Assembly (NCBI GenBank): GCA_964464535.1
Contig: CAYXGJ010000002.1
Location: 77,989 to 141,988 of the forward strand
Reading direction: 5' to 3'
From: an uncultured Thermodesulfatator sp.
Lineage (GTDB): Bacteria > Desulfobacterota > Thermodesulfobacteria > Thermodesulfobacteriales > Thermodesulfobacteriaceae
Length of the DNA stretch: 64,000 nt
A model generated the notes under the pieces. The model did not search any database. It saw only the letters and a list, made by a program, of their open reading frames with translations, and was not told the DNA's origin. Below, piece by piece: positions 8,574-40,409 of the stretch (within the stretch, counting starts at the first letter, position 1; each line of letters starts with the position of its first letter). Both the position numbers and the translations under genes were made by a program.

Positions 8574-11108
8574 TTAATATTCTATAGATTTTATATCTTT
8601 ATTAATTGGGTTAATAATTTTAAAATTTAAAATGTTTCTTTTTTGTAAATAATAGGGAAGTTTCCAGTTTTGTGTGATTAAATCTTTTTGAATAAATATA
8701 ATAAATTGATTAGATTTAAAAGTTTCTAAAAGTTTTTTGATTTTTTCTGATAAGTCTTCTAATCTGAAAACTTGAGCCTCATAAAAATTTTCAAAATTAA
8801 ATTTTTGTAGATTTTCTGAAGCTACAAATAATGAAAATAAATAATCTTTATAAGGAGGGTTTAAAAAGTCTATTTCGGGTAATTTTGAAAGATCCTTTTG
8901 CGAAAGCCCTTTTAATCCATTATTTAAAATTTTTAAAAATAACTCAGGATCAACCCCGATAGTTAATACTTTTATTTTATTCATTTTTGCCCATTCTATT
9001 ACCTCTAAAAGTGCTTTCACATGGATATAATCTATATTTTTTAAACTTTCTTTTAGTTGAAATTCTGAAAGCTTATTTTCAAAATAATCCTCTAAAAGCC
9101 TTTGAAAGAAAGGTGGTAAATCTAAGGCTAAAATAATGTTTCTATTAAAATTATAAAGACTTTGCAAAAGATTTTTTAAATAATCCTTACAAAAAGGAAT
9201 TTCCTTTTCTATGCCTGCTAAAATTATTTGAGAATTGATGTATTTTAAAGCTTCTTCTCTAAATGAAAAATTACTTTTTATGCAGGTTTCTTCTGAAAAT
9301 AAGGGAATAAATATAGGTATCCCTTCAAAGGTTTTGTCTTCCCTTTTTAAAATAACTTTTCCAGATCGGATAAATATTTCTGAATAGGGATTCAGAGAAA
9401 CTAAATTTTTTAATGCCTCATCTAATTCATTTTGAGAAGAAACGTGTAGATAACCTATTATATATTCAGAATTATAAGGATTAGGAATAACTTTTAGATA
9501 AAAACCTTCAGAAGGTGGGTTAAACTGCCAAGTAAGGGGAGAAATATTTAAATAAATCAAATTCTCAAAAATTTTAGAAATTTCTGAAAACTCAATAAAG
9601 GAAAAAGATATTTTATAACCTAAATTTCTAAAATAATCAATAAACTTTTTATAAGTTGGAAGATCATCCTTTTTGAGAATAATTGTTCCTTGAGAATAAA
9701 AAAGCTTAGCTATACAATTGGGTATTTCCTCAAAATCTAAATTTCTCCAAAGTTTATATTCAGGATCTATAAATATTACTTCTGGTTTTCCGTTAACAGA
9801 AATTTGAAAATCTTGGGTTTCCTTTTCTAAATTTAAAACTACAAATTTACTCCCCTTTTCAGTTTCTATCTCAAGAGAGATAGGTATAGATTTGACCAAA
9901 TTTTTTGAGGCTAAATTTGTATAAAGGGTTAAATCTAACAAATAAAAATCTTTTTCTTGTATAATAGATTTAACTTCCCCCCTTAAATTTAGTTTTTGGA
10001 ATTCCTCATAAGAAATTATAAAGTTTTTAAATTCTGGATAACTTTGTTGAATTAAAATTAAAAAATCATTTAAACTTCTAAAGTTAAAAATACTCTTTTC
10101 ATAAAATTTTTTGAAAAAGTTTATAAAATTTTTCTCCCCAATTCTTTCAGCTAAAAATAAAAAATAAAAAAAAGCTTTAGATTCTTTTTTGGGGAATAAA
10201 ATCTGTAACTTTCTAAAATCTTTTTTATTTTCAGCAAGTTGATAATCTATTAAATAGGTGATTAAACCTTCTTTTATTTCTTCTTCTAAAAGTATTTCAT
10301 CTTCAAGTTTTTTCTTAGTTAAACAATGTAAAAATTGTTTCGTATCTTTCAAAGATGAATAACTAATAAATAAAACATTTGAAAAACTTTTAACCTTAGG
10401 AAAATCTTCAGGGACCAAAATAAGGTGAAATATTTTAAAAGGATGTAAGAAAATTCCTATATTTTCTAAATGATAGGCAAAGGTCTTAAAATTTTCAAAA
10501 ATTTTTTTTAGATCTTTTTCAGATAAAGTATAAAGCTGTGGAGAATAATAAAAATAAAAAGAAAAGTTTTTATAGGAAAATTTCATTTTTTCTAATTTAA
10601 AGGGACTTATAATTATGCAAGGATTTAAAAGAGGATTTTGAGTTTTAAAGGTATAAAGCAAAAAGTTTTTATCTCTTTCTATTTTTGATTCTTCTGAAGG
10701 AATTAAGATCTCCATATTTTCAAAAGTATCTGGAATTTTGAGGTTAATTTGATAAGTAAAGGGTTTACCAGGATAAGGAAAAGGAGGATGAACAATTGTT
10801 ATAGGTAAAAGATAGGGATTAAGATTTTTTTCAAAGGATATATATAAAGAACTTTCTTCTTTAGTAAAAATTTTTAAAAATTCTTCTTGCTCAAACAAAA
10901 GAACTTCAGAAGAGGTTTGAACTTCATTTATAGTAAGATCAGAAGTTATAAATTTATATTCTCCATTTAAATTGTCTGTAAAAAGAGAGCCCTTAAGAAG
11001 ATTTAACTCTGGATAAAGTTCTAAGTCTATTTTAAGAAGAGGAGTTCCTAAGGAAAGATTTGGTAAAAAAAGAATCCAAAAAAATAAAATATAAGTAAAA
11101 AGCCTCAT
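8574..11108 (-). CDS. Exported 844-aa protein: degenerate M1-aminopeptidase-like region fused to a degenerate ChaN-like domain
   Basis: N-terminal signal-like segment; KEGLITYLIDY (M1 'EGLTTY'-like); PEVIFIDPEYKLWRNL linker; C-terminal WAKMNKIKVLTIGV...GLKGLS...FENFYEAQV resembling ChaN. Canonical HExxH and GExH are not present. Confidence 0.55.
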   Translation of the reverse strand: MRLFTYILFFWILFLPNLSLGTPLLKIDLELYPELNLLKGSLFTDNLNGEYKFITSDLTINEVQTSSEVLLFEQEEFLKIFTKEESSLYISFEKNLNPYLLPITIVHPPFPYPGKPFTYQINLKIPDTFENMEILIPSEESKIERDKNFLLYTFKTQNPLLNPCIIISPFKLEKMKFSYKNFSFYFYYSPQLYTLSEKDLKKIFENFKTFAYHLENIGIFLHPFKIFHLILVPEDFPKVKSFSNVLFISYSSLKDTKQFLHCLTKKKLEDEILLEEEIKEGLITYLIDYQLAENKKDFRKLQILFPKKESKAFFYFLFLAERIGEKNFINFFKKFYEKSIFNFRSLNDFLILIQQSYPEFKNFIISYEEFQKLNLRGEVKSIIQEKDFYLLDLTLYTNLASKNLVKSIPISLEIETEKGSKFVVLNLEKETQDFQISVNGKPEVIFIDPEYKLWRNLDFEEIPNCIAKLFYSQGTIILKKDDLPTYKKFIDYFRNLGYKISFSFIEFSEISKIFENLIYLNISPLTWQFNPPSEGFYLKVIPNPYNSEYIIGYLHVSSQNELDEALKNLVSLNPYSEIFIRSGKVILKREDKTFEGIPIFIPLFSEETCIKSNFSFREEALKYINSQIILAGIEKEIPFCKDYLKNLLQSLYNFNRNIILALDLPPFFQRLLEDYFENKLSEFQLKESLKNIDYIHVKALLEVIEWAKMNKIKVLTIGVDPELFLKILNNGLKGLSQKDLSKLPEIDFLNPPYKDYLFSLFVASENLQKFNFENFYEAQVFRLEDLSEKIKKLLETFKSNQFIIFIQKDLITQNWKLPYYLQKRNILNFKIINPINKDIKSIEY

Positions 11109-22669: not shown

Positions 22670-23656
22670 TTATACCAAATTATATTTTTTAAGTTTTTCT
22701 ATAAAAGTTGTACGATTCAATCCTAATAATTTAGCTGCTTTTGTTTTGGTACCCTTTGATATTTCAAGAGCTTTTTTGAGATAATAAATTTCTATTTCTC
22801 TTAAAAGTTTATTTAATTCAATTCCTTCTTCAGATATTTCTGGAAGTGTATATTTAACCCATGTTTCTTTTTTTTCAATTAAACCTTCTCTTATAGGGAA
22901 TTTTAAATCTAATGAAGATATAGAAAGATCTTTAACTCCGATAATATTATTTTCTGAGAGTATTACTAGCCTTTCTATCAAATTTTCTAATTCTCTTATG
23001 TTACCAGGCCAGTGATAATTGATAAGTTTTTCTAAAGCAGAAGGAGTAATTGTTTTTTCCTCTATTCCTTCTCTTTCACATAACCTTTTTAAGAAGAATT
23101 TTACTAATAAAGGAATATCTTCTTTTCTTTCTCTTAAGGGAGGAAGTGTTAAAGGAATTACATTTAATCTAAAAAAAAGATCCTCCCTAAATCTTCCTTC
23201 CTTAACCTCTTTTTCTAAATCCTTATTGGTTGCAGCAATAATCCTTACTTCAATTTTAATAGCCTTATCACCACCTAATCTTTCTACTTGTTTTTCTTGA
23301 ATTACTCTTAAAAGTTTGGCCTGGAGTTTAGGACTTAAATCTCCTATTTCATCAAGAAAGATAGTTCCTTGGTTTGCAAGTTCAAATTTACCTGGTTTAC
23401 TTTTTATAGCTCCTGTAAAGGCTCCTTTTTCATATCCAAAAAGCTCAGCTTCTAAAAGTTCCTCTGGAATAGCGGCACAATTTATGGGAACAAAGGGTCC
23501 TTTTCTTTTACTACAAAAATGAATATATTTTGCCAAAACCTCTTTTCCTGTTCCTGATTCTCCAAGGATAAGAATTGTGCTTGAAGAAGGAGCTACCTTC
23601 TTTGCTAACTCATAAATTCTTTTCATTTGTGGATTTCGAGTTTCTAAAAGAAACAT
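22670..23656 (-). CDS. Sigma-54-dependent activator lacking an N-terminal regulatory domain (FleQ/FlrA position)
   Basis: Begins directly at the AAA+ domain: GESGTGKE, GAFTGA, FLDEIG, WPGNIRELEN; C-terminal HTH AAKLLGLNRTT. Confidence 0.9.
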   Translation of the reverse strand: MFLLETRNPQMKRIYELAKKVAPSSSTILILGESGTGKEVLAKYIHFCSKRKGPFVPINCAAIPEELLEAELFGYEKGAFTGAIKSKPGKFELANQGTIFLDEIGDLSPKLQAKLLRVIQEKQVERLGGDKAIKIEVRIIAATNKDLEKEVKEGRFREDLFFRLNVIPLTLPPLRERKEDIPLLVKFFLKRLCEREGIEEKTITPSALEKLINYHWPGNIRELENLIERLVILSENNIIGVKDLSISSLDLKFPIREGLIEKKETWVKYTLPEISEEGIELNKLLREIEIYYLKKALEISKGTKTKAAKLLGLNRTTFIEKLKKYNLV

Positions 23657-23693
23657 ATTAAAATTATATCACAATTTTGACAGATATGTCAAA
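23657..23693 (-). promoter_or_regulatory. Consensus sigma70 promoter (TTGACA-18-TATAAT, extended -10) with an overlapping palindrome; probably leaderless
   Basis: Minus strand: TTGACA 23692-23687, TGA-TATAAT 23668-23663, 6 nt, ATG 23656. Palindrome TTTGACA-GATA-TGTCAAA at 23676-23693. Confidence 0.7.
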
Positions 23694-23700
23694 TTTTTGA

Positions 23701-25542
23701 TTATTTATTTTTTATATATTTATGAGCATATTTTCTTACATAATGTCCTTCAAGAACATGAAATATACGTATTTTTTCAAGAAAGTTTTTGGAAAATGAG
23801 CCAATAGGTAGAAAAATTACTTTTTTACCTTGAAGGGAAGCAAATTTTTTTGCAAGATTAGTGGGGGGTTTTTTGGCTACATAAATTATATATTTTTCTA
23901 AGCTATAATCTATTCCGGCTAAGAGAAGTCTTTCAGCTTTATTTATTGCTATATCAAAATAAGGATCTTCCCATATATCATAGACTCTCATAGGAGGATA
24001 AGTAAGCATGAAACCTCCATATTTAGCTTTAGCAATACCAGGACCTACTACAGTTTCTTTTGGATCAGTGGAATAAAAAGCCATGTCTGATTCTTGATGA
24101 TGTTCTCCATGCCAGGTAAAATTCCAAGGATACCTTTCCTTTCCTGTTAATGGATCAGGATCTTCTTCGAAAATTATTACTATTGAACCTGCCTTTGCAT
24201 GAGCTTGGGGTTCTTCTTTAACATAAGGAGTTTCTTCAAAAAACCATTTTCTTATTGTTTCCTTTAAATCTAAACCATCTTTTAATGAAACTGTAAAAGG
24301 TTCAATTTTTCTTAAATTTTCTGTAATAACTTTAAGTCCTTTCTCCATCACCTTTTTTCCAAAAGTTTCAACTACTACATCCTCTGGAGGAAAAGAGCAA
24401 ATAACCTTTCCGGTGAAATCTTTCTTAAAAATTTTCCTTTCTTCTCTTGTAGTAAATCCTTGCAAGAAATTTAAGCTACTTCTTATGCTTTTTATTTTCC
24501 TTGAAATTCTTAGTCTTTTAGAAGGAAGTCTTAAATCTTCGGGAGAAAGATTTATAATAGGGAAGGGAGAAAGCTCTTCTTTTTGAAATTCATAGAAAGT
24601 TGCAATCTCCCAAAACCAGAAGGCAAATTCATCTCCTCCTATTCCTCTTACTGCTAAAATTAATGTATAAAGGTCAGGAATATATTGTCCTTTTATTAAA
24701 AGAAGATTCCTTAAAAATTGTCCAAAAACTTGAAGATCCTTGGGAGAAAGCTTTGTTCCTGTTTCTTTATAATACTTTTGTCTTGCCTTTTCAAAGACTT
24801 CTTCAAATAAAGTAATTCTATCAAGGGTAAATTTTTTATTTTCTATTAATTTTTTTCTATTTTTTTCATAAACACATTGAAAATACCCGGGCTCAGAAAG
24901 AATTTCTCTTAAACTTTTAGAATTTAAAGTATAAATTTCTATTTCTTTAGGTATATTTTTAGGAAGATATAGTAAACCCGAAGCTGTTTTAAGAGCACTT
25001 ATTACTCCCTTTACTTGATAAAAGGGCAAAATAATAGCGATAGAATTATATTTTTGAGAAATTTCAAGGATTTTTTCTGCGATGTATTTTTCTCTTTCTG
25101 TTAGATATTCTTCAAAAAAGGAAAGAGTTAAATTTACATATTTGATAAATTCTAATTCCTTAATAAGATAAGTAGGTAGAGGAGTAAAATTAGATAAGTC
25201 TTCTTGTGGTGCTTCCTTTGGAAGATCTATAAAAAAAATAGGGATACTTGAAAAAATAGCATATCTTGTTGCTTCAACTAAAGGGCATAAAGGTTCTACA
25301 ATTAGATATTCAGTTTCTTGTGTTTTATAAATGAGAGAAAGAACAGAAATGGTAGGAAGACTTTTTACAGCAAGCAACCATTTATCTTTTATAAAAAAAG
25401 GAAGGGCAATTGCTATAGCAGAAGGTTTAATTTCAGCTAAAAGTTTTATAATACTTTGAGTAATTTCAAGATTACTGGAAAAGAAAGGTAGGAAATATAA
25501 AATTGAAGTTTTATCCTTAAATTTTTTTTCAATTTTAAACAT
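23701..25542 (-). CDS. Conserved hypothetical 613-aa protein, partner of the adjacent MoxR AAA+ ATPase
   Basis: Long intact ORF 7 bp downstream of the ATPase; information-rich C-terminal half (ICSFPPED, DGLDLKETIRKW, TWHGEHHQESDMAFYST, PPMRVYDIWEDP). Confidence 0.8.
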   Translation of the reverse strand: MFKIEKKFKDKTSILYFLPFFSSNLEITQSIIKLLAEIKPSAIAIALPFFIKDKWLLAVKSLPTISVLSLIYKTQETEYLIVEPLCPLVEATRYAIFSSIPIFFIDLPKEAPQEDLSNFTPLPTYLIKELEFIKYVNLTLSFFEEYLTEREKYIAEKILEISQKYNSIAIILPFYQVKGVISALKTASGLLYLPKNIPKEIEIYTLNSKSLREILSEPGYFQCVYEKNRKKLIENKKFTLDRITLFEEVFEKARQKYYKETGTKLSPKDLQVFGQFLRNLLLIKGQYIPDLYTLILAVRGIGGDEFAFWFWEIATFYEFQKEELSPFPIINLSPEDLRLPSKRLRISRKIKSIRSSLNFLQGFTTREERKIFKKDFTGKVICSFPPEDVVVETFGKKVMEKGLKVITENLRKIEPFTVSLKDGLDLKETIRKWFFEETPYVKEEPQAHAKAGSIVIIFEEDPDPLTGKERYPWNFTWHGEHHQESDMAFYSTDPKETVVGPGIAKAKYGGFMLTYPPMRVYDIWEDPYFDIAINKAERLLLAGIDYSLEKYIIYVAKKPPTNLAKKFASLQGKKVIFLPIGSFSKNFLEKIRIFHVLEGHYVRKYAHKYIKNK

Positions 25543-25549
25543 GTTTGAA

Positions 25550-26437
25550 TTAATCTAAAGGACGTAATAAAGGTTTAGTTGATTTCTTATTTTCCAAAAG
25601 TTCTTTCAAATATATTAATGCTTGAGGACCGAGTATTACTGAAATAGCCTCTTTAAGAAGTGGTAAAAGATTTGTTAAATCCTTAGAGGATTTATTTGAG
25701 AATTTAATTTTTTTAAGGACATAACGCCCTATATTTACTCCATCTCTTACACTATAAAGTTCTCCATATTCGTGAGCCATTTGTAAAAACCTAACTATAT
25801 AGTCAAGAAGTCCTTCATCAGCCCAAGGCAAATTAGTTTTTAAAATAGCCTTTTCTTCTTCATAAGAAGGAAAATCTATAAAAATTTGAGGTTGCAATCT
25901 TGAATGGATATATTCAGGCAATTCAAAGGTTGAAGCATCTTCATTCATAGTTACGCAAAGTCTAAAATCTAGGTGAGCTTTTATTTTTATTCCTGCTATA
26001 ATAGATTCTACGTACCTTCTGGCATCAAGAAGAGGTGCAAGAGAAGCCCAGGATTTTTCACTCATTCGATTAGCCTCATCAATAATAGCTACTCCACCTT
26101 TTATCATAGCAGTAACTATAGGGCTTGCTACATACCTTATTTTTTTATCTTCTGAAATAACAGGAGTTATAATAAGATCTTCTGGTCTTGTATCAACAGT
26201 TGCCTGGAAAATATAAACTTCTTTATTTAGCCTTTTTGCAGCTGCATAGGCAAGGGTTGTTTTCCCAACCCCAGGTTTTCCAATAAGACGAGGGGTTAGA
26301 GGAAGGTCTTTTTCATCTAAAATAAGCCAGCAAGCAAGTATTTGTTCAATAATTTCATTCCTTGGATAAAGAGGAATATTTAATTCATCAGGGTGAGAAA
26401 GGTATATGGTTACACCGTCAATTACAACGCTTTCCAT
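25550..26437 (-). CDS. MoxR/CbbQ-type AAA+ ATPase (AAA_5)
   Basis: Walker A GKPGVGKT, TRPEDLI, Walker B IIDEANRM, FRLCVTMN, sensor/arginine finger YIHSRL. Confidence 0.88.
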   Translation of the reverse strand: MESVVIDGVTIYLSHPDELNIPLYPRNEIIEQILACWLILDEKDLPLTPRLIGKPGVGKTTLAYAAAKRLNKEVYIFQATVDTRPEDLIITPVISEDKKIRYVASPIVTAMIKGGVAIIDEANRMSEKSWASLAPLLDARRYVESIIAGIKIKAHLDFRLCVTMNEDASTFELPEYIHSRLQPQIFIDFPSYEEEKAILKTNLPWADEGLLDYIVRFLQMAHEYGELYSVRDGVNIGRYVLKKIKFSNKSSKDLTNLLPLLKEAISVILGPQALIYLKELLENKKSTKPLLRPLD

Positions 26438-26503
26438 ATAATTTTAAATATATTCCGCTTTTAAAAATTTGCTACCTTAAATTTTACAAGAATAAAAAAG
26501 TTA

Positions 26504-26535
26504 TTGACAAATGTAATTTAAAGGACTATTAATTT
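26504..26535 (+). promoter_or_regulatory. Possible sigma70 promoter of the NSS transporter
   Basis: TTGACA 26504-26509; -10 ambiguous (TATTAA at 17 nt or TAATTT at 20 nt); no SD before ATG 26543. Confidence 0.4.
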
Positions 26536-35144: not shown

Positions 35145-38100
35145 TTACTTAATGTTTAGGTAATCTTTCAAGATTTCTGAAGTAATAGTATTAGCTTTTA
35201 AAAATTCTTCAATAGGTCCTTCAAAGATAAGGTAACCTCCTTTTTCTCCTCCTTCAGGACCAAGTTCAATTACCCAATCTGCCCATTTAATAAGTTCAAG
35301 ATTATGTTCTATTACAATAACAGTATGTCCTTTATCAATAAGTCCTTGCAATACATTTACTAACTTTTCCACATCATTTATATGAAGTCCTGTAGTGGGT
35401 TCGTCTAAAATAAAAAGAGAGCCTCCTTTTGAGGATTTGACAAATTCCTTAGTAAGTTTTATTCTTTGAGCCTCTCCTCCAGAAAGAGAAGGACTTGGTT
35501 GACCAAGATTCAAATAATCAAGACCAATGTTGCAAAGAGTATTTAATTTTTGATAAATAGAGGAGAAGTGTTTGAAAAATTCTTTTGCTTCAGAAAAATC
35601 CATATTCAAAACTTCAGAAATATTTTTTCCTTTGAAATAGACTTCAAGGGTTTCTGGATTATATCTTTTACCTCCGCAATATTCACATACCTGATATACT
35701 TCTGGTAAAAATTTAATTTCCACTTTAAGATAACCTTGTCCTTTGCAATAAGGACATTGCCCTTCTTCAGTATTAAAAGAAAATCTGCCTTCCTTATAAC
35801 CTCTTTGTCTTGCTAAAGGAGTATTTGCAAAAACTTCTCTAATATTAGTAAAAACATTTATATAAGTTGCTGGAGTAGATCTTGGTGTATTTCCAATCGG
35901 AGAATGATCAACTAAGTAAACTCTCTTTATATTTTCAAATCCTCTTACATTTTTAACTCCCCATAAATCTAATTTTGACTTAGTTTTTATACTCAAAAGC
36001 TTTTTTAAATTTTCATAAAGAAGTTCACATATTAAAGTTGATTTTCCAGAACCAGAAACTCCTACTACTACTGTAAGTGAATTTAAGGGAATAGATACAT
36101 TTATATTTTTAAGATTTCTTAAATAAGCTCCCTCTAAAAGAATAAATTTAGAAGGTTTTCTTTTAAGACTCTTTAATTTCTTTCTGTTTATATCTTTAAG
36201 AGCTTTTGCAGTTTCCGAAATTTCATTTTTAAGAAGTTGAGAAGGAGTTCCTACAAATATAACTTCTCCTCCCTTTTTTCCTCCTCCTGGACCAAGATCT
36301 ACAATATAATCAGCAGAAAGAATAGTTTCTTCATCATGCTCAACTACAATTATAGTATTTCCCTTATTTTTTAAAGATTTTAAAACTTTTATCAACTTAG
36401 CATTATCCTTAGGATGAAGTCCAATTGTTGGTTCATCAAGAATATAAGCAACCCCTGTGAGATTGCTTCCAATTTCAGCGGATATTCTTACTCTTTTAGC
36501 TTCTCCAGAAGATAGAGTATCTGCTGATCTTCCAAGGGTTAAATATCCTACACCAAGCTCAATTAAATATTTGAGTCTTGATATTATTTCAGAAATAAGT
36601 CCTTCAGCTAAAATTTTTTCTTTACCTTCAAGCTTAAGGTTTTTTAAAAATTCTATTGCCTTTTCAATACTAAGTTCACAAAATTCAGGAAGGGAAAGAC
36701 CGTTTATTTTATAATAAAAAACTTCCTCTTTATACCTACTTCCTTTACATAAAGGACAGACCTTATCTTCTATTTTCCCAAGACCTTGACAGTGAGAACA
36801 AGCACCGATTCTTGAATTAAAAGCAAAAAGCAAGGGATCAGGTTCAGGAAGGCTAACTCCACATTTTACACAGGCTCTCTTTTGGCTAAAAAGAAATTCC
36901 TTAGAATTTACCAGAAGTAAAGCTTCTCCCTTACCCTCCTTTAAAGTTTTTAAAAATAGCTCTTCAAAATTTTTAAATTTTTTAAAATTAGTCTTACCTA
37001 TTAAAGCTTCAATGGTATGCTCTTTATATCTTGATAAAGAAGGTATAGGTGGGAGTTTATAGAAAATTGAATCAATTCTTACTTCGTAATATCCGGAGTT
37101 TAAAAGCTTTTCAAAAAGATTCCTGTAAATTCCTTTGCGGTGTTTTACTATGGGTGCAAGAAAGGAAACTTCAGCATTTTCAAGTTTTTCTTCCTTAAAA
37201 AGTTTTTTAGCAAATTCAAGAAGTTCCTTTTCTGAACGAGGTATTAATGGGAAATTACATTTTGGACAATAGGTTTTACTTATCTTTGAATAAAGAAGTC
37301 TTAAATAAGGAAGTATTTCTGTAAGGGTACCAACTGTAGAACGAGGAGATAATTCTCCTGATTTTTGTTCTAAAGCCACTGTAGGTGGAATACCAGAAAT
37401 AAGGTCATAATCTATTTCTTCATAAAGTTTTAAAAATTGTCTTAAATAGGCAGGTAAAGTTTCTAAAAATCTTCTTTGTCCCTCAGTGAAAATAACATCA
37501 AAAGCAAGAGTTGATTTTCCAGAGCCAGAAACTCCTGTAATCACAATAAATTTTTCTCTTGGCAAATCTACATCTATATTTTTTAAGTTATGATGTCTTA
37601 TACCTCTAAGTTTTATGTAAGTATCTTCATAATGATATTTTTTTTCCTTTTCAGCTTTTTCTTTAAGTTTTAAACCTGTTAAATATTCTTTTAAATAATA
37701 AGCTGTTTTACTTTTTTGATCTTTTAAATTTAAAAAATCCTTTAAAGATCCTTCAAAGATAAGGTAACCTCCTTTTTCTCCTCCTTCAGGACCAAGTTCA
37801 ATTACCCAATCTGAGGAAAGTATTATTTCAGGATGATGCTCAACTACCACAATGGTATGTCCTTTTTCTTTAAGATATTTTAAAGAAGAAACAAGTTTTT
37901 CTATATCTTTTAAATGAAGTCCTACTGTTGGTTCGTCAAGGAGAATAAGCGCTTTTTCACTTTTTATTTGAGATAGAATTTCTGCAATTTTTAATCTTTG
38001 TGCTTCTCCTCCAGAAAGAGTCGAAAGGGGTTGTCCCAATTTTAAATAACCAAGACCAAGTTTTTGCAAGATATTTAAAGTTCCTTTTATAGGAGGATGA

Positions 38101-40409
38101 TTTTCAAAAAATTCAATAGCAGAATCTACTGTAAGTTCAAGTATTTCTGCAATATTTTTATCTTTCCATTTTATTTCAAGTACTTCTTCTTTATATCTTT
38201 TTCCTTTACATACCTCACAAGGAATGACAAGATCTGAAAGAAACTGCATTTCTATAACTTCAAAACCAAGACCTTTACATTCGGAACATTGTGAAATTTC
38301 AGAATTAAAAGAGAAAAAGGTTTCAGTATATCCGTATTTTTTAGCAAGAGGAGTGCTTGCAAGAAGTTTTCTAATATAGGGGAAAATTCCTATATAAGTA
38401 GCAACTATACTTCTTGGAGAACGTGCTAAAGGTTCTTGAGTAATAAAAAGAACTTGAGAAAAATGTTCATAACCTTCTATAGATTCACAAGAATCAAAAC
38501 TTAAATTTTGTTTGTAAGCAGTGATACCTTTGTAAATTATTTCTTCAAGAAGGGTTGATTTTCCAGAGCCAGAAGCTCCTACTATAGAGGTAATAGCACC
38601 AACAGGTAAAGAAAAAGTTATTTCTTTTAAATTATATTTTTTAGCCTTTATTATTTTTAATTTTTTGGGGTAAGAGTAAGAAGTATAATAAGAGACTTTT
38701 CTTTGAGAACTTAAGTATTTAAGTGCTAAAGCAGTAGGGGTATCTTTTTCAAATATCTTCTTTGGAGTTCCTGCATAAAGAAGATAACCCCCTTTTTCTC
38801 CTCCCTCAGGGCCAAGATCTATTAAAAAATCAGCTTGGGTAATAATTTCTGGATCATGTTCTACTATAACTACAGTATTATTTTGAGAAACCAAATTTTC
38901 CATAAATTTAAGTATCTTTTGAGTATCAGTAGGGTGAAGACCTGTTGTTGGTTCATCAATAAGATAAAGGGTTTCTACTAAATTAGAAGAAAGAGCTCTT
39001 GTTAAAAGGCATCTACTTGCTTCTCCTCCAGAAAGAGTTTTACTTGCTCTGTTTAAGGTGAGATAGGAAAGTCCAACCTCTTCTAAATAAAAAAGCCTTT
39101 TTAAAATCTCCTTTGCAAGTCTCTCTTCAGCTGGTAATCTATTTTTAGAAAGAAATTCCTTTATAAATTCCTTTGCTTGTAATATTTCTAAGTTGTAAAA
39201 ATCTCCTATATTTAAGTCTTGAATATAAAAAATAAGCGCTTGTGAATTGAAACGAGTTCCCTTACATATAGGACAGGTTATTTCTCTTCTCAGTTTTGAA
39301 AGAAGGATTCTTATATGAGGTTTATATTTTTTACTTTCAAGCCAATCTATAACTTCTTTAAGTCCATACCAATCTCCTTCTCCAAAAAAGATTTTCCTTT
39401 TTATTTCTGAAGAAAATCTTTCAAAAGGTAAGTTTAGATCTATTCCTTGTTTTTTTAAAAAATCTATAAGATCAAATTTTACTTCCAACATAAAAGGATA
39501 ATCAAGAAGAGGAATTGCTCCATCTTTTATCGATTTTTCAGGATGTTTTACCAAGGCTTTAAAATCTACTACTAAAAGATTTCCAAATCCTTTACATTCA
39601 GGACAAGCTCCTTGAGAAGTATTAAAAGAAAAAAGATTTGGAGTTTTTTGGGGAACTTTAAATCCACAGGTAGGACATACCAATTCGCGAGTATAAGTAA
39701 ATTCTTCGCCATATAATGTTTTCACTTTTATATGATCAGAAAATTTAAAAGCCAGCTCAATAGCTTGAGCGATCTCTGAAAGATCCTCTTCAGAAGGTTT
39801 AAGCCTATAAATAACCACTTCTATTTCATCAACATATGGAAATTTTTCTATTTCTTCAAGCTCACATATTTTACCATCCCAGAAAATTCTACTGAATCCT
39901 GCAGAAAGAAGTCCCTCTTTAAGATAATTGAAATCTGTTTTTATCTTTTGTGGAGAAAGTAAATAAATAGGTATGTTTTTAAAATTTTGGATAATTTCTT
40001 TAGCAATCAAATGAGGGTCTTTAATGTAGATATATTGATTACATCTTGGGCATTTTGGGATACTTGCTTTGTAATAAAGCATTTTAGTAAAATGGCTTAT
40101 TTCAGTAAGTGTTGCAACTGTTGAACGGGAAGTTTTAATATAATTTCCCTGAGGAAAAGCAAGAGCTGGAGGAATATTGTTTATGTCTTCTACTTTTGGT
40201 TTGGGGAGTTTTTCAAAATATTGTCTTACATATGAAGAAAAGGTTTCTAAATATCTTCTCTGTCCTTCAGCATAAAGGGTATCAAAGACTAAACTTGATT
40301 TACCAGCACCAGAAATTCCTGTAACTACAACAAGCTTATAAAAAGGTAATCTTAAATCAAAACCTTTAAGATTATTTTGGGAGACTTTAATAACTTCAAC
40401 AAATTTCAT
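35145..40409 (-). CDS. uvrA: Excinuclease ABC subunit A, double-length (two tandem UvrA modules)
   Basis: Four Walker A motifs (GISGAGKSS, GASGSGKST, GVSGSGKST twice), four LSxGE signatures, multiple CxxC fingers; the second module starts near 37620 (IKLRGIRHHNLKNID). Confidence 0.93.
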   Translation of the reverse strand: MKFVEVIKVSQNNLKGFDLRLPFYKLVVVTGISGAGKSSLVFDTLYAEGQRRYLETFSSYVRQYFEKLPKPKVEDINNIPPALAFPQGNYIKTSRSTVATLTEISHFTKMLYYKASIPKCPRCNQYIYIKDPHLIAKEIIQNFKNIPIYLLSPQKIKTDFNYLKEGLLSAGFSRIFWDGKICELEEIEKFPYVDEIEVVIYRLKPSEEDLSEIAQAIELAFKFSDHIKVKTLYGEEFTYTRELVCPTCGFKVPQKTPNLFSFNTSQGACPECKGFGNLLVVDFKALVKHPEKSIKDGAIPLLDYPFMLEVKFDLIDFLKKQGIDLNLPFERFSSEIKRKIFFGEGDWYGLKEVIDWLESKKYKPHIRILLSKLRREITCPICKGTRFNSQALIFYIQDLNIGDFYNLEILQAKEFIKEFLSKNRLPAEERLAKEILKRLFYLEEVGLSYLTLNRASKTLSGGEASRCLLTRALSSNLVETLYLIDEPTTGLHPTDTQKILKFMENLVSQNNTVVIVEHDPEIITQADFLIDLGPEGGEKGGYLLYAGTPKKIFEKDTPTALALKYLSSQRKVSYYTSYSYPKKLKIIKAKKYNLKEITFSLPVGAITSIVGASGSGKSTLLEEIIYKGITAYKQNLSFDSCESIEGYEHFSQVLFITQEPLARSPRSIVATYIGIFPYIRKLLASTPLAKKYGYTETFFSFNSEISQCSECKGLGFEVIEMQFLSDLVIPCEVCKGKRYKEEVLEIKWKDKNIAEILELTVDSAIEFFENHPPIKGTLNILQKLGLGYLKLGQPLSTLSGGEAQRLKIAEILSQIKSEKALILLDEPTVGLHLKDIEKLVSSLKYLKEKGHTIVVVEHHPEIILSSDWVIELGPEGGEKGGYLIFEGSLKDFLNLKDQKSKTAYYLKEYLTGLKLKEKAEKEKKYHYEDTYIKLRGIRHHNLKNIDVDLPREKFIVITGVSGSGKSTLAFDVIFTEGQRRFLETLPAYLRQFLKLYEEIDYDLISGIPPTVALEQKSGELSPRSTVGTLTEILPYLRLLYSKISKTYCPKCNFPLIPRSEKELLEFAKKLFKEEKLENAEVSFLAPIVKHRKGIYRNLFEKLLNSGYYEVRIDSIFYKLPPIPSLSRYKEHTIEALIGKTNFKKFKNFEELFLKTLKEGKGEALLLVNSKEFLFSQKRACVKCGVSLPEPDPLLFAFNSRIGACSHCQGLGKIEDKVCPLCKGSRYKEEVFYYKINGLSLPEFCELSIEKAIEFLKNLKLEGKEKILAEGLISEIISRLKYLIELGVGYLTLGRSADTLSSGEAKRVRISAEIGSNLTGVAYILDEPTIGLHPKDNAKLIKVLKSLKNKGNTIIVVEHDEETILSADYIVDLGPGGGKKGGEVIFVGTPSQLLKNEISETAKALKDINRKKLKSLKRKPSKFILLEGAYLRNLKNINVSIPLNSLTVVVGVSGSGKSTLICELLYENLKKLLSIKTKSKLDLWGVKNVRGFENIKRVYLVDHSPIGNTPRSTPATYINVFTNIREVFANTPLARQRGYKEGRFSFNTEEGQCPYCKGQGYLKVEIKFLPEVYQVCEYCGGKRYNPETLEVYFKGKNISEVLNMDFSEAKEFFKHFSSIYQKLNTLCNIGLDYLNLGQPSPSLSGGEAQRIKLTKEFVKSSKGGSLFILDEPTTGLHINDVEKLVNVLQGLIDKGHTVIVIEHNLELIKWADWVIELGPEGGEKGGYLIFEGPIEEFLKANTITSEILKDYLNIK
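35217..35281. repeat. 65-bp perfect direct repeat, copy at end of UvrA module 2
   Basis: TCCTTCAAAGATAAGGTAACCTCCTTTTTCTCCTCCTTCAGGACCAAGTTCAATTACCCAATCTG, identical to 37749-37813. Confidence 0.95.
37749..37813. repeat. 65-bp perfect direct repeat, copy at end of UvrA module 1
   Basis: Identical to 35217-35281; both encode DWVIELGPEGGEKGGYLIFEG; offset 2532 bp (844 codons). Confidence 0.95.

Follow-up and report, generated by a model that had tools for sequence, protein, structure and literature searches.

A MoxR-group AAA+ ATPase and its 613-residue partner in Thermodesulfatator: a conserved gene pair with YehL/YehM as nearest relative

Of the AAA+ motors, the MoxR-group ATPases belong to the least understood, and their mechanism has been studied almost entirely in versions that act together with a VWA adaptor. 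Such VWA partners are usual for the group, as in CbbQ/CbbO, NorQ/NorD and RavA/ViaA. In a 64,000-nucleotide stretch of DNA from an uncultured Thermodesulfatator sp. (contig CAYXGJ010000002.1), here called the window, a gene for a MoxR-group ATPase is followed by a gene for a 613-residue partner, and no VWA gene stands beside them. The question is what kind of system such a pair forms and which part of it does the work. The first-pass annotation of the window had suggested an undescribed MoxR system. This suggestion holds in so far as the two genes are a genuine conserved ATPase–partner unit without a VWA gene, but the unit is tied to the known YehL/YehM through the N-terminal module of the partner. 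YehL/YehM is the nearest relative of the module; what sets it apart is a new effector domain in a MoxR-type system without VWA. Other MoxR relatives that lack VWA, GvpN being one, are already known. The reading preferred here, to which a probability of roughly one half is given, is that of a self-contained ATPase–effector module related to YehL/YehM, which would not need a VWA adaptor and would have its working part in an unrecognised C-terminal domain.

The gene pair and its spread

In 68 of 76 evaluable GTDB loci (89%), the gene directly upstream of the partner gene, in the same orientation, is that of an ATPase orthologue 59–92% identical to the window ATPase. Evaluable are the loci with enough upstream sequence to judge, out of 80 that were fetched; these are the best 80 of at least 595 and hence biased to closer relatives. 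The same arrangement was seen in loci inspected by hand, from T. indicus, a Desulfobacterota metagenome-assembled genome (MAG), Wallbacteria, an unassigned contig and Promethearchaeota (Asgard archaea). Whether the two genes co-occur elsewhere had been left as a check by the first-pass annotation; they do, and the pairing is far above chance. The layout described there, a two-gene unit with a 7-nt gap and its own upstream intergenic region, was recovered exactly, with both open reading frames (ORFs) on the minus strand. In hand-inspected loci elsewhere, the genes are separated by 1 nt (L002) or overlap (L004 and L009), and this spacing suggests that ATPase and partner are translationally coupled.

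The partner belongs to a large family. An exhaustive profile search gave 1,604 representatives at 50% identity with E ≤ 1e-3, 417 of them with E ≤ 1e-30; Candidatus Wallbacteria, Syntrophobacteria and Promethearchaeota are represented here. When GTDB species genomes were scanned, a partner relative was detected in at least 595 of them, among others in Omnitrophota, Acidobacteriota, Geobacter and Parachlamydiaceae. Full-length homologues, named 'hypothetical protein', are encoded in Thermodesulfobacterium, Thermodesulfatator, Thermosulfurimonas and many Desulfobacterota MAGs, and within the Thermodesulfobacteriota the gene tree follows taxonomy. As judged from gene order and sequence, the ATPase and its partner of ~610 aa are shown to be tightly coupled, being passed on as a pair by both inheritance and transfer, in many bacterial phyla and in Asgard archaea.

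A partner gene without an ATPase gene within 6 kb occurs in eight of the 76 GTDB loci (L036, L054, L059, L071, L072, L081, L084 and L088) and, additionally, in locus L006, which encodes an 806-aa member. The ORFs upstream of these orphan partners are unrelated genes. When the orphan loci were checked for a divergent ATPase, no upstream ORF with a Walker A motif was found, except for an unrelated ABC-like gene, an ABC/AAA_15-like ATPase, in L059. In L071, a nearby ORF begins with the TIR-like motif FLSYSHKD.

Against Pfam, the window ATPase scores 69.8 bits with AAA_5 (cut-off 22) and 36.5 bits with AAA_3 (cut-off 27). Its Walker A/B motifs and arginine region had been described as intact, and this is borne out: Walker A (GKPGVGKT) starts at residue 53 (G53–T60), Walker B (VAIIDE) at 116 (D120/E121) and sensor-1 (CVTMN) at 161 (N165), and R140/R141, R159, R180, R231 and R238 are invariant in six orthologues of bacterial and archaeal origin. 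In a PDB sequence search, the solved proteins that come closest are midasin (its AAA domains), CbbQ and NorQ, the latter two being the closest bacterial ones (E 7e-6 to 3e-5). An NCBIfam scan reached no equivalog, the GvpN and CbbX models matching the P-loop only and far below their cut-offs, and a homologue search returned as matches only orthologues of at least 62% identity, with no outgroup among them. To orthologues of other bacterial phyla and of the Promethearchaeota, the ATPase is 55–70% identical, compared to 30–46% for the partners. By this measure, the ATPase is more conserved than the partner and the motor is under very strong constraint. The 437-aa orthologue from Promethearchaeota (L007, 8648-9961, plus strand) carries a very acidic, lysine-rich C-terminal tail of ~150 residues that bacterial orthologues lack; this tail is a possible counterpart for the partner's basic linker, described below.

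VWA genes were looked for in the window and in the ±10 kb flanks of the pair in other genomes. As had been remarked for the window, no recognisable VWA gene goes with the ATPase–partner unit: none adjoins the pair in the seven loci inspected for this by hand (the window and six others), and no VWA family is among the recurrent families in a Pfam scan of the nearest ORF on each side (67 downstream, 64 upstream). A crude phmmer screen of all window ORFs against two VWA proteins, of low sensitivity, gave nothing. One archaeal locus has a VWA gene at 5 kb from the pair, with unrelated PAP2, methyltransferase and GTPase genes in between. A VWA domain hidden inside the partner was not found either, as 21 members have no VWA Pfam match at E ≤ 1; a 'VWFA' match of the C-terminal domain in BFVD (E 0.039, probability 0.12, template modelling (TM) score 0.16) is not meaningful.

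No third conserved gene accompanies the pair. Clustering of 248 flanking ORFs gave 174 clusters, of which the larger ones are each confined to one lineage. The commonest neighbours among the 67 downstream ORFs are PAS/histidine-kinase genes (11) and sigma-54 activators (6, of which 3 represent Thermodesulfobacterium synteny), and among the 64 upstream ORFs FtsJ (7) and D-Ala-D-Ala ligase (4). In the window, a sigma-54 activator and a TPR protein are found downstream and a symporter upstream. Genes for rRNA methyltransferases stand beside the pair in three lineages, i.e., an RlmL-like gene (L002, 11830-12942), a RrnaAD/KsgA gene whose start is the last base of the partner gene (L009, 12310-13080), and FtsJ in seven Desulfobacterales-type loci (e.g., L026, 4163-4774). 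A link with ribosome biogenesis was considered for these flanks and rejected, as FtsJ comes from one Desulfobacterales-type lineage; it is further weakened by RlmL, which is not kept even in close Thermodesulfatator relatives. These flanks are not conserved within lineages and may be coincidental. On the Wallbacteria contig, DUF58 and DUF4129 genes (L008, 12707-14637, minus strand) are located near the pair, on the opposite strand and at the contig end. DUF58 is a usual companion of MRP-type MoxR ATPases, and a second, classical MoxR system may stand next to the pair there.

The partner protein

Whether the partner maps to an already characterised family had been left to be checked: it does not, and it is named 'hypothetical protein' throughout. 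No Pfam family was matched at E ≤ 0.1, PDB sequence and profile searches were empty, and PADLOC gave no match (for the ATPase, it gave weak generic P-loop matches of ~20 bits or less). The earlier description as a novel protein holds for the C-terminal domain, which has no detectable relatives in Pfam, PDB or BFVD, but not for the first ~300 residues, which are homologous to DUF5682/YehM.

This homology emerges from profile alignment. With hhalign, the family profile matches a 90-sequence DUF5682 profile with a probability of 94.6% (E 7.3e-8) over window residues 16–297 and YehM residues 5–320, and a 129-sequence family profile matches YehM with a probability of 88%. The H, E, 'RE..MA' and 'GG.H' motifs align between the partner family and YehM. 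Past window residue 297 nothing aligns with YehM, the second-best alignment having a probability of 0.1%. E. coli YehM matches DUF5682 (PF18934) with E 2.4e-98 and 330.8 bits, and its gene follows the AAA_5 gene yehL. The window partner has no DUF5682 match; sub-threshold matches occur in 8 of 21 members, over the 'RE..MA..GG.H' stretch, and every family member scanned stays below the gathering cut-off of 26, the best one reaching 23.6 bits over 50 residues. On the profile evidence, partner residues 16–297 and the N-terminal module of DUF5682/YehM are homologues.

The pair thus resembles E. coli YehL–YehM in that a large partner gene directly follows an AAA_5 gene and in that this shared part comprises the TIKI/TraB-like domain and the helices behind it. 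It differs from yehLMPQ in having no YehP-type VWA_CoxE gene and no YehQ-type SWIM gene. Moreover, the C-terminal ~270 residues of the partner have no counterpart in YehM, whereas the C-terminal ~440 residues of YehM have no homology in the partner, and the window ATPase of 295 aa has no specific similarity to YehL, which counts 362 aa. In the literature searched, no paper mentions DUF5682, none on YehM, YehL or MoxR deals with the function of YehM, and none links MoxR with TraB, Tiki or PrgY.

The first 206 residues were modelled by AlphaFold2 (AF2) as an alternation of β-strands and α-helices. The family consensus of this domain reads P-[IV]-L-H-x-R-x-E-F-A ... V-A-V-E-[YL]-P ... R-E-x-x-M-A ... 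G-G-x-x-H. The signature of the TIKI superfamily consists of two His and two Glu with a nearby basic residue (PMC6254334), and the family consensus, with its two His, two Glu and one Arg, has them in matching order. Among 129 diverse members, the key positions are kept as His in 103, Glu in 107, His in 100 and Arg in 106. An α/β domain with the order His ... Glu ... Arg-Glu ... Gly-x-x-His, present in ~80% of the family, is a likeness to TIKI, TraB, PrgY, erythromycin esterase and ChaN, but the partner differs from the superfamily by its coupling to an AAA+ ATPase and its fusion to a new C-terminal domain. The window partner has S22, A46 and Q176 at key positions and keeps E26 and R150/E151 alone; its Thermodesulfobacterium relatives likewise lack both His and one Glu. 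Because both His and one Glu are lost, the N-terminal domain of the window partner is predicted to be catalytically dead by TIKI criteria, as is PMT, an inactive member of the superfamily (PMC6254334).

Other traces of this superfamily are faint but consistent. The partner scores 15.9 bits (E 0.005) with the NCBIfam TraB model TIGR00261, which has a cut-off of 178, and TraB PF01963 was found in 3 of 21 members with E 0.059–0.21. The T. indicus orthologue of the partner carries the UniRef name 'TraB determinant'. Foldseek gave one high-probability match for the N-terminal domain (0.95, E 8e-3, low TM), to some chain of complex IV from Tetrahymena, for which a TraB-family subunit has been reported. 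The window encodes a second TIKI-superfamily protein, unlinked to the pair: an 844-aa ORF (8574-11108, minus strand) with a C-terminal Cofac_haem_bdg/ChaN domain (E 3e-11).

Behind the TIKI/TraB-like domain, a helical segment is packed on it in the models. Longer partners of 700–806 aa (e.g., P0125, P0126, P0137, P0162 and P0184) bear insertions of 60–180 aa at residues 231–237, and the L006 partner, without adjacent ATPase, is one of these insertion-bearing members. The linker that follows is strongly basic, with a family median of 29% lysine plus arginine compared to 13% for the whole protein. Its median net charge is +7, at least +5 being reached in 90 of 129 members, and a semi-conserved pattern K-[KR]-I-R-F-H-R-R ... 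P-G-E-W can be discerned in it.

The C-terminal domain is the most conserved part of the partner, above the TIKI-like domain. The motifs that had been picked out from the sequence, i.e., ICSFPPED, TWHGEHHQESDMAFYST, GPGIAKAKYGG, PPMRVYDIWEDP and ERLLLAGIDYS, are all found, and they are located where conservation within this large family is highest. An AF2 model of the full-length partner, built on 21 sequences, has a predicted local distance difference test (pLDDT) score of 70, with values below 50 in the C-terminal half, and gave no informative Foldseek result. Based on an alignment of 138 sequences, residues 340–613 were modelled at a mean pLDDT of 92.2 and a predicted TM score of 0.84, as a long helix, a β-rich centre and a C-terminal β-α-β-α-β-α unit. 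S383, E387, D388, E392, G423, T429, E480, E484, S485, H595 and R603 are kept in at least 122 of 129 members, and D422, D425, R427, R431, H481 and C382 less strictly. Within the WHGEHHQESD segment, a putative metal-binding stretch in the first-pass annotation, E480, E484 and S485 are near-universal and H481 is kept in 85%, while H482 and W477–H478 are not conserved. The near-invariant polar set suggests a catalytic or metal/ligand-binding site. Foldseek of the C-terminal domain gave nothing significant against the PDB (best E 0.18, TM ≤ 0.19) or BFVD (best E 0.039). An RNase-H-like fold was considered for this domain and set aside, as the Foldseek scores do not rise above noise and the DEDD pattern is not matched by the conserved residues.

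How the pair may work, and what else it could be

By analogy with CbbQ and NorQ, the ATPase would assemble into a hexameric ring. The N-terminal module common with YehM would dock on this ring; this role is assigned to it as no other element is common to the two different partner families encoded behind AAA_5 ATPases. ATP hydrolysis would then remodel the partner, or a client held by the partner, and thereby enable the C-terminal domain to act on its substrate. The latter domain would be the effector, and is probably catalytic or metal/ligand-binding. The basic linker may make contact with the ring pore or with some acidic surface. A hydrolase step may be contributed, in the majority of the family, by the TIKI-type 2His/2Glu site. 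In this genome, the N-terminal domain would have a purely structural role, leaving function to the C-terminal domain, where the essential activity is placed because the TIKI-type site has decayed while all else was kept.

In its small single-ring AAA_5 ATPase, the pair resembles CbbQ–CbbO, NorQ–NorD and GvpN-type systems, and with these it shares the two-gene layout of an ATPase and a large partner, from which client remodelling or maturation is expected. CbbO and NorD have a VWA/MIDAS domain, however, whereas none is detectable in the partner, and no client gene as in the CbbQ, NorQ and GvpN systems (Rubisco, nitric oxide reductase or gas vesicle) lies near the pair. A bolder and distinctly more tentative proposal is that the pair is an unrecognised AAA+-driven enzyme, in which the C-terminal domain has a new fold with a new acid/His/Ser/Arg site, is gated by the ring and acts on a highly conserved cellular target. 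Such a target would explain the motor identity of 55–70% between Asgard archaea and bacteria. If this proposal is true, the pair would be a third MoxR-group type beside VWA-adaptor systems and GvpN.

Several points weigh against a self-contained module of the YehL/YehM kind. The ATPase compares to YehL with a BLASTP E of 0.16 and an hhalign probability of 7% and is thus not specifically YehL-like, so the YehL/YehM analogy is carried by the partner alone. No partner scan reached a curated TraB/TIKI threshold, and the profile of the N-terminal domain aligns with the ChaN domain encoded in the window at an hhalign probability of 8.7%, above ten scrambles. Apart from the bias in the loci sampled, the partner can exist without an adjacent motor, which is the case for ~10% of partners, and a VWA protein from elsewhere in the genome could take part. 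The public runs that contain the sequence are hot-spring or sediment metagenome DNA, none being RNA, so that co-transcription is presumptive. Finally, contact between the two proteins, docking by the N-terminal module and catalysis by the C-terminal domain are inferred.

Other explanations were weighed as well. The pair could act as an ATP-dependent TIKI-type hydrolase or protease, in which the ring unfolds or presents substrates to the TIKI/TraB-like site and the C-terminal domain recognises them. The ~80% of the family that keeps the 2His/2Glu plus Arg layout of active TIKI enzymes agrees with this, as do the appended, function-promoting domains that are typical of TIKI proteases (PMC6254334). 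The window protein and its Thermodesulfobacterium relatives, however, have lost both His and one Glu, yet they keep the ATPase and the conserved C-terminal domain, so the function here cannot be a TIKI-type hydrolytic step. It would also be unusual for a domain that serves recognition only to be more conserved than the TIKI-like domain, and no MoxR-group ring is known to thread substrates into a peptidase. This explanation, excluded as the function in this genome, is an unlikely one. A canonical MoxR–VWA system is quite unlikely as well; in this case the adaptor would be encoded elsewhere and the 613-aa protein would be an accessory, as YehM is to YehL/YehP/YehQ. That the homologous N-terminal module occurs in YehM, an operon-mate in E. 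coli of the VWA_CoxE protein YehP and the SWIM protein YehQ, argues for it, together with the usual presence of VWA partners in the group and the VWA gene 5 kb from the pair in an archaeal locus. The latter gene, however, is cut off from the pair by the unrelated genes mentioned above, and VWA genes are missing from all seven hand-inspected loci (0/7), from the recurrent families in the 67 downstream and 64 upstream ORFs and from the crude screen of the 64-kb window. Moreover, a pair moving as a unit between phyla and domains is unlikely to need an unlinked, specific adaptor.

McrB is likewise an AAA_5-type NTPase, and its gene is followed, as here, by that of a dedicated effector, with no VWA adaptor. 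In a conflict or defence module of the McrBC type, the AAA_5 NTPase would control a nuclease-like effector with an RNase-H-like C-terminal domain, and the linker would bind nucleic acid. The strongly basic linker is in line with this, defence genes are found near some loci (a Wadjet-like cluster in L004, a restriction-modification gene in L007), and the top, non-significant Foldseek matches are repeatedly RNase-H-like (short pAgo PIWI, integrase core, RuvC-like resolvases, the C-terminal half of UvrC, terminase). These matches all have E ≥ 0.039, probability ≤ 0.16 and TM ≤ 0.19, though, and the universal residues are located on a helix N-terminus and in loops, not at DEDD strand/helix positions. 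Unlike McrC, the partner is without a recognised nuclease domain, PD-(D/E)xK or otherwise, and it differs from defence systems by the lack of a PADLOC match, with only the generic P-loop matches for the ATPase. Conservation across domains is very high, and 55–70% ATPase identity combined with a taxonomy-like gene tree is atypical of fast-evolving defence genes. A defence module is decidedly improbable. Even less credence is left to a functional tie of the pair with flagellar or sigma-54 regulation. A motility link had been thought possible from the flagellar regulator downstream: on the same strand, a sigma-54 activator, a TPR/YbgF-like protein and a second sigma-54 regulator are followed by flgC, fliF, fliG, fliH and fliI. 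No terminator-like site is present in the 44-nt gap between the stop codon of the partner and the ATG of the activator, so read-through is possible, and a sigma-54 activator is the downstream neighbour in 6 of 67 loci. Three of these six represent Thermodesulfobacterium synteny, however, and elsewhere the neighbours are unrelated. The link is not supported because the activator has its own perfect sigma-70 promoter (12/12) in the 44-nt gap and the neighbours of the pair differ in every other lineage. The pair is also present in Promethearchaeota and Parachlamydiaceae, in which a bacterial flagellar apparatus would not be expected. Comparative context has thus already largely refuted this idea.

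If a self-contained module is indeed what the pair encodes, it offers a compact system of two genes and ~900 residues, widespread in at least 595 species genomes of bacteria and Asgard archaea, in which the VWA adaptor is replaced by a partner whose front is shared with the equally unexplained E. coli YehM. It would be a simple system in which to ask how a MoxR-type ring engages a non-VWA partner, and what the role of the YehM-type N-terminal module is, a question for yehLMPQ since the sequencing of the E. coli genome. The loss of the TIKI-type site in Thermodesulfobacterium provides a natural separation of the roles of the two partner domains, without engineering.

Features of the locus and its surroundings

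The coordinates of the unit, of the segments of the partner and of two promoter-like sites are given in Table 1. The window is AT-rich, with ~30% G+C. The intergenic region 5′ of the ATPase gene counts 105 nt and is common to a divergent gene for an SNF-family symporter. The total of promoter-like sites in this region is not above the expectation from shuffling, so TTGTCA-18-TAAAAT is a candidate only.

Table 1. Positions of the ATPase–partner unit, partner segments and promoter-like sites in the window
Feature	Position	Strand	Basis and remarks
AAA_5/MoxR-group AAA+ ATPase	25550..26437	minus	295 aa ORF; Pfam and motifs
Partner protein ORF	23701..25542	minus	613 aa
7-nt spacer 'ttcaaac', ATPase stop TAA to partner ATG	25543..25549	minus	sequence
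Sigma-70-like promoter candidate TTGTCA-18-TAAAAT, 10/12	26510..26481	minus	consensus scan; ~44 nt before ATPase ATG
Partner residues 1–206, α/β TIKI/TraB-like domain	24925..25542	minus	models at pLDDT ~90; homology to YehM N-terminus
Partner residues 207–337, helical, packed on N-terminal domain	24532..24924	minus	pLDDT 80–96; YehM alignment to ~297
Partner residues 338–378, low-confidence basic linker	24409..24531	minus	lysine plus arginine content; model confidence
Partner residues 379–613, C-terminal α/β domain	23704..24408	minus	AF2 model and conservation
Perfect sigma-70 promoter TTGACA-18-TATAAT with TG extension, 12/12	23663..23692	minus	consensus scan; serves sigma-54 activator, outside the unit

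The sigma-54 activator downstream of the partner (22670..23656, minus strand, 328 aa) is receiver-less: it consists of AAA+ and HTH_8 only, without a receiver or sensor domain. The -35 element of its promoter is part of the palindrome TTGACATATCTGTCAA, which is possibly an operator. The TPR/YbgF-like protein counts 623 aa and the second sigma-54 regulator 441 aa, and both genes are located upstream of the flagellar operon. Further away, at 35145-40409 (minus strand), the window contains a UvrA-like ORF of 1,754 aa with several ABC_tran, UvrA_inter and UvrA_DNA-bind matches, which is longer than expected for UvrA, a protein of ~940 aa.

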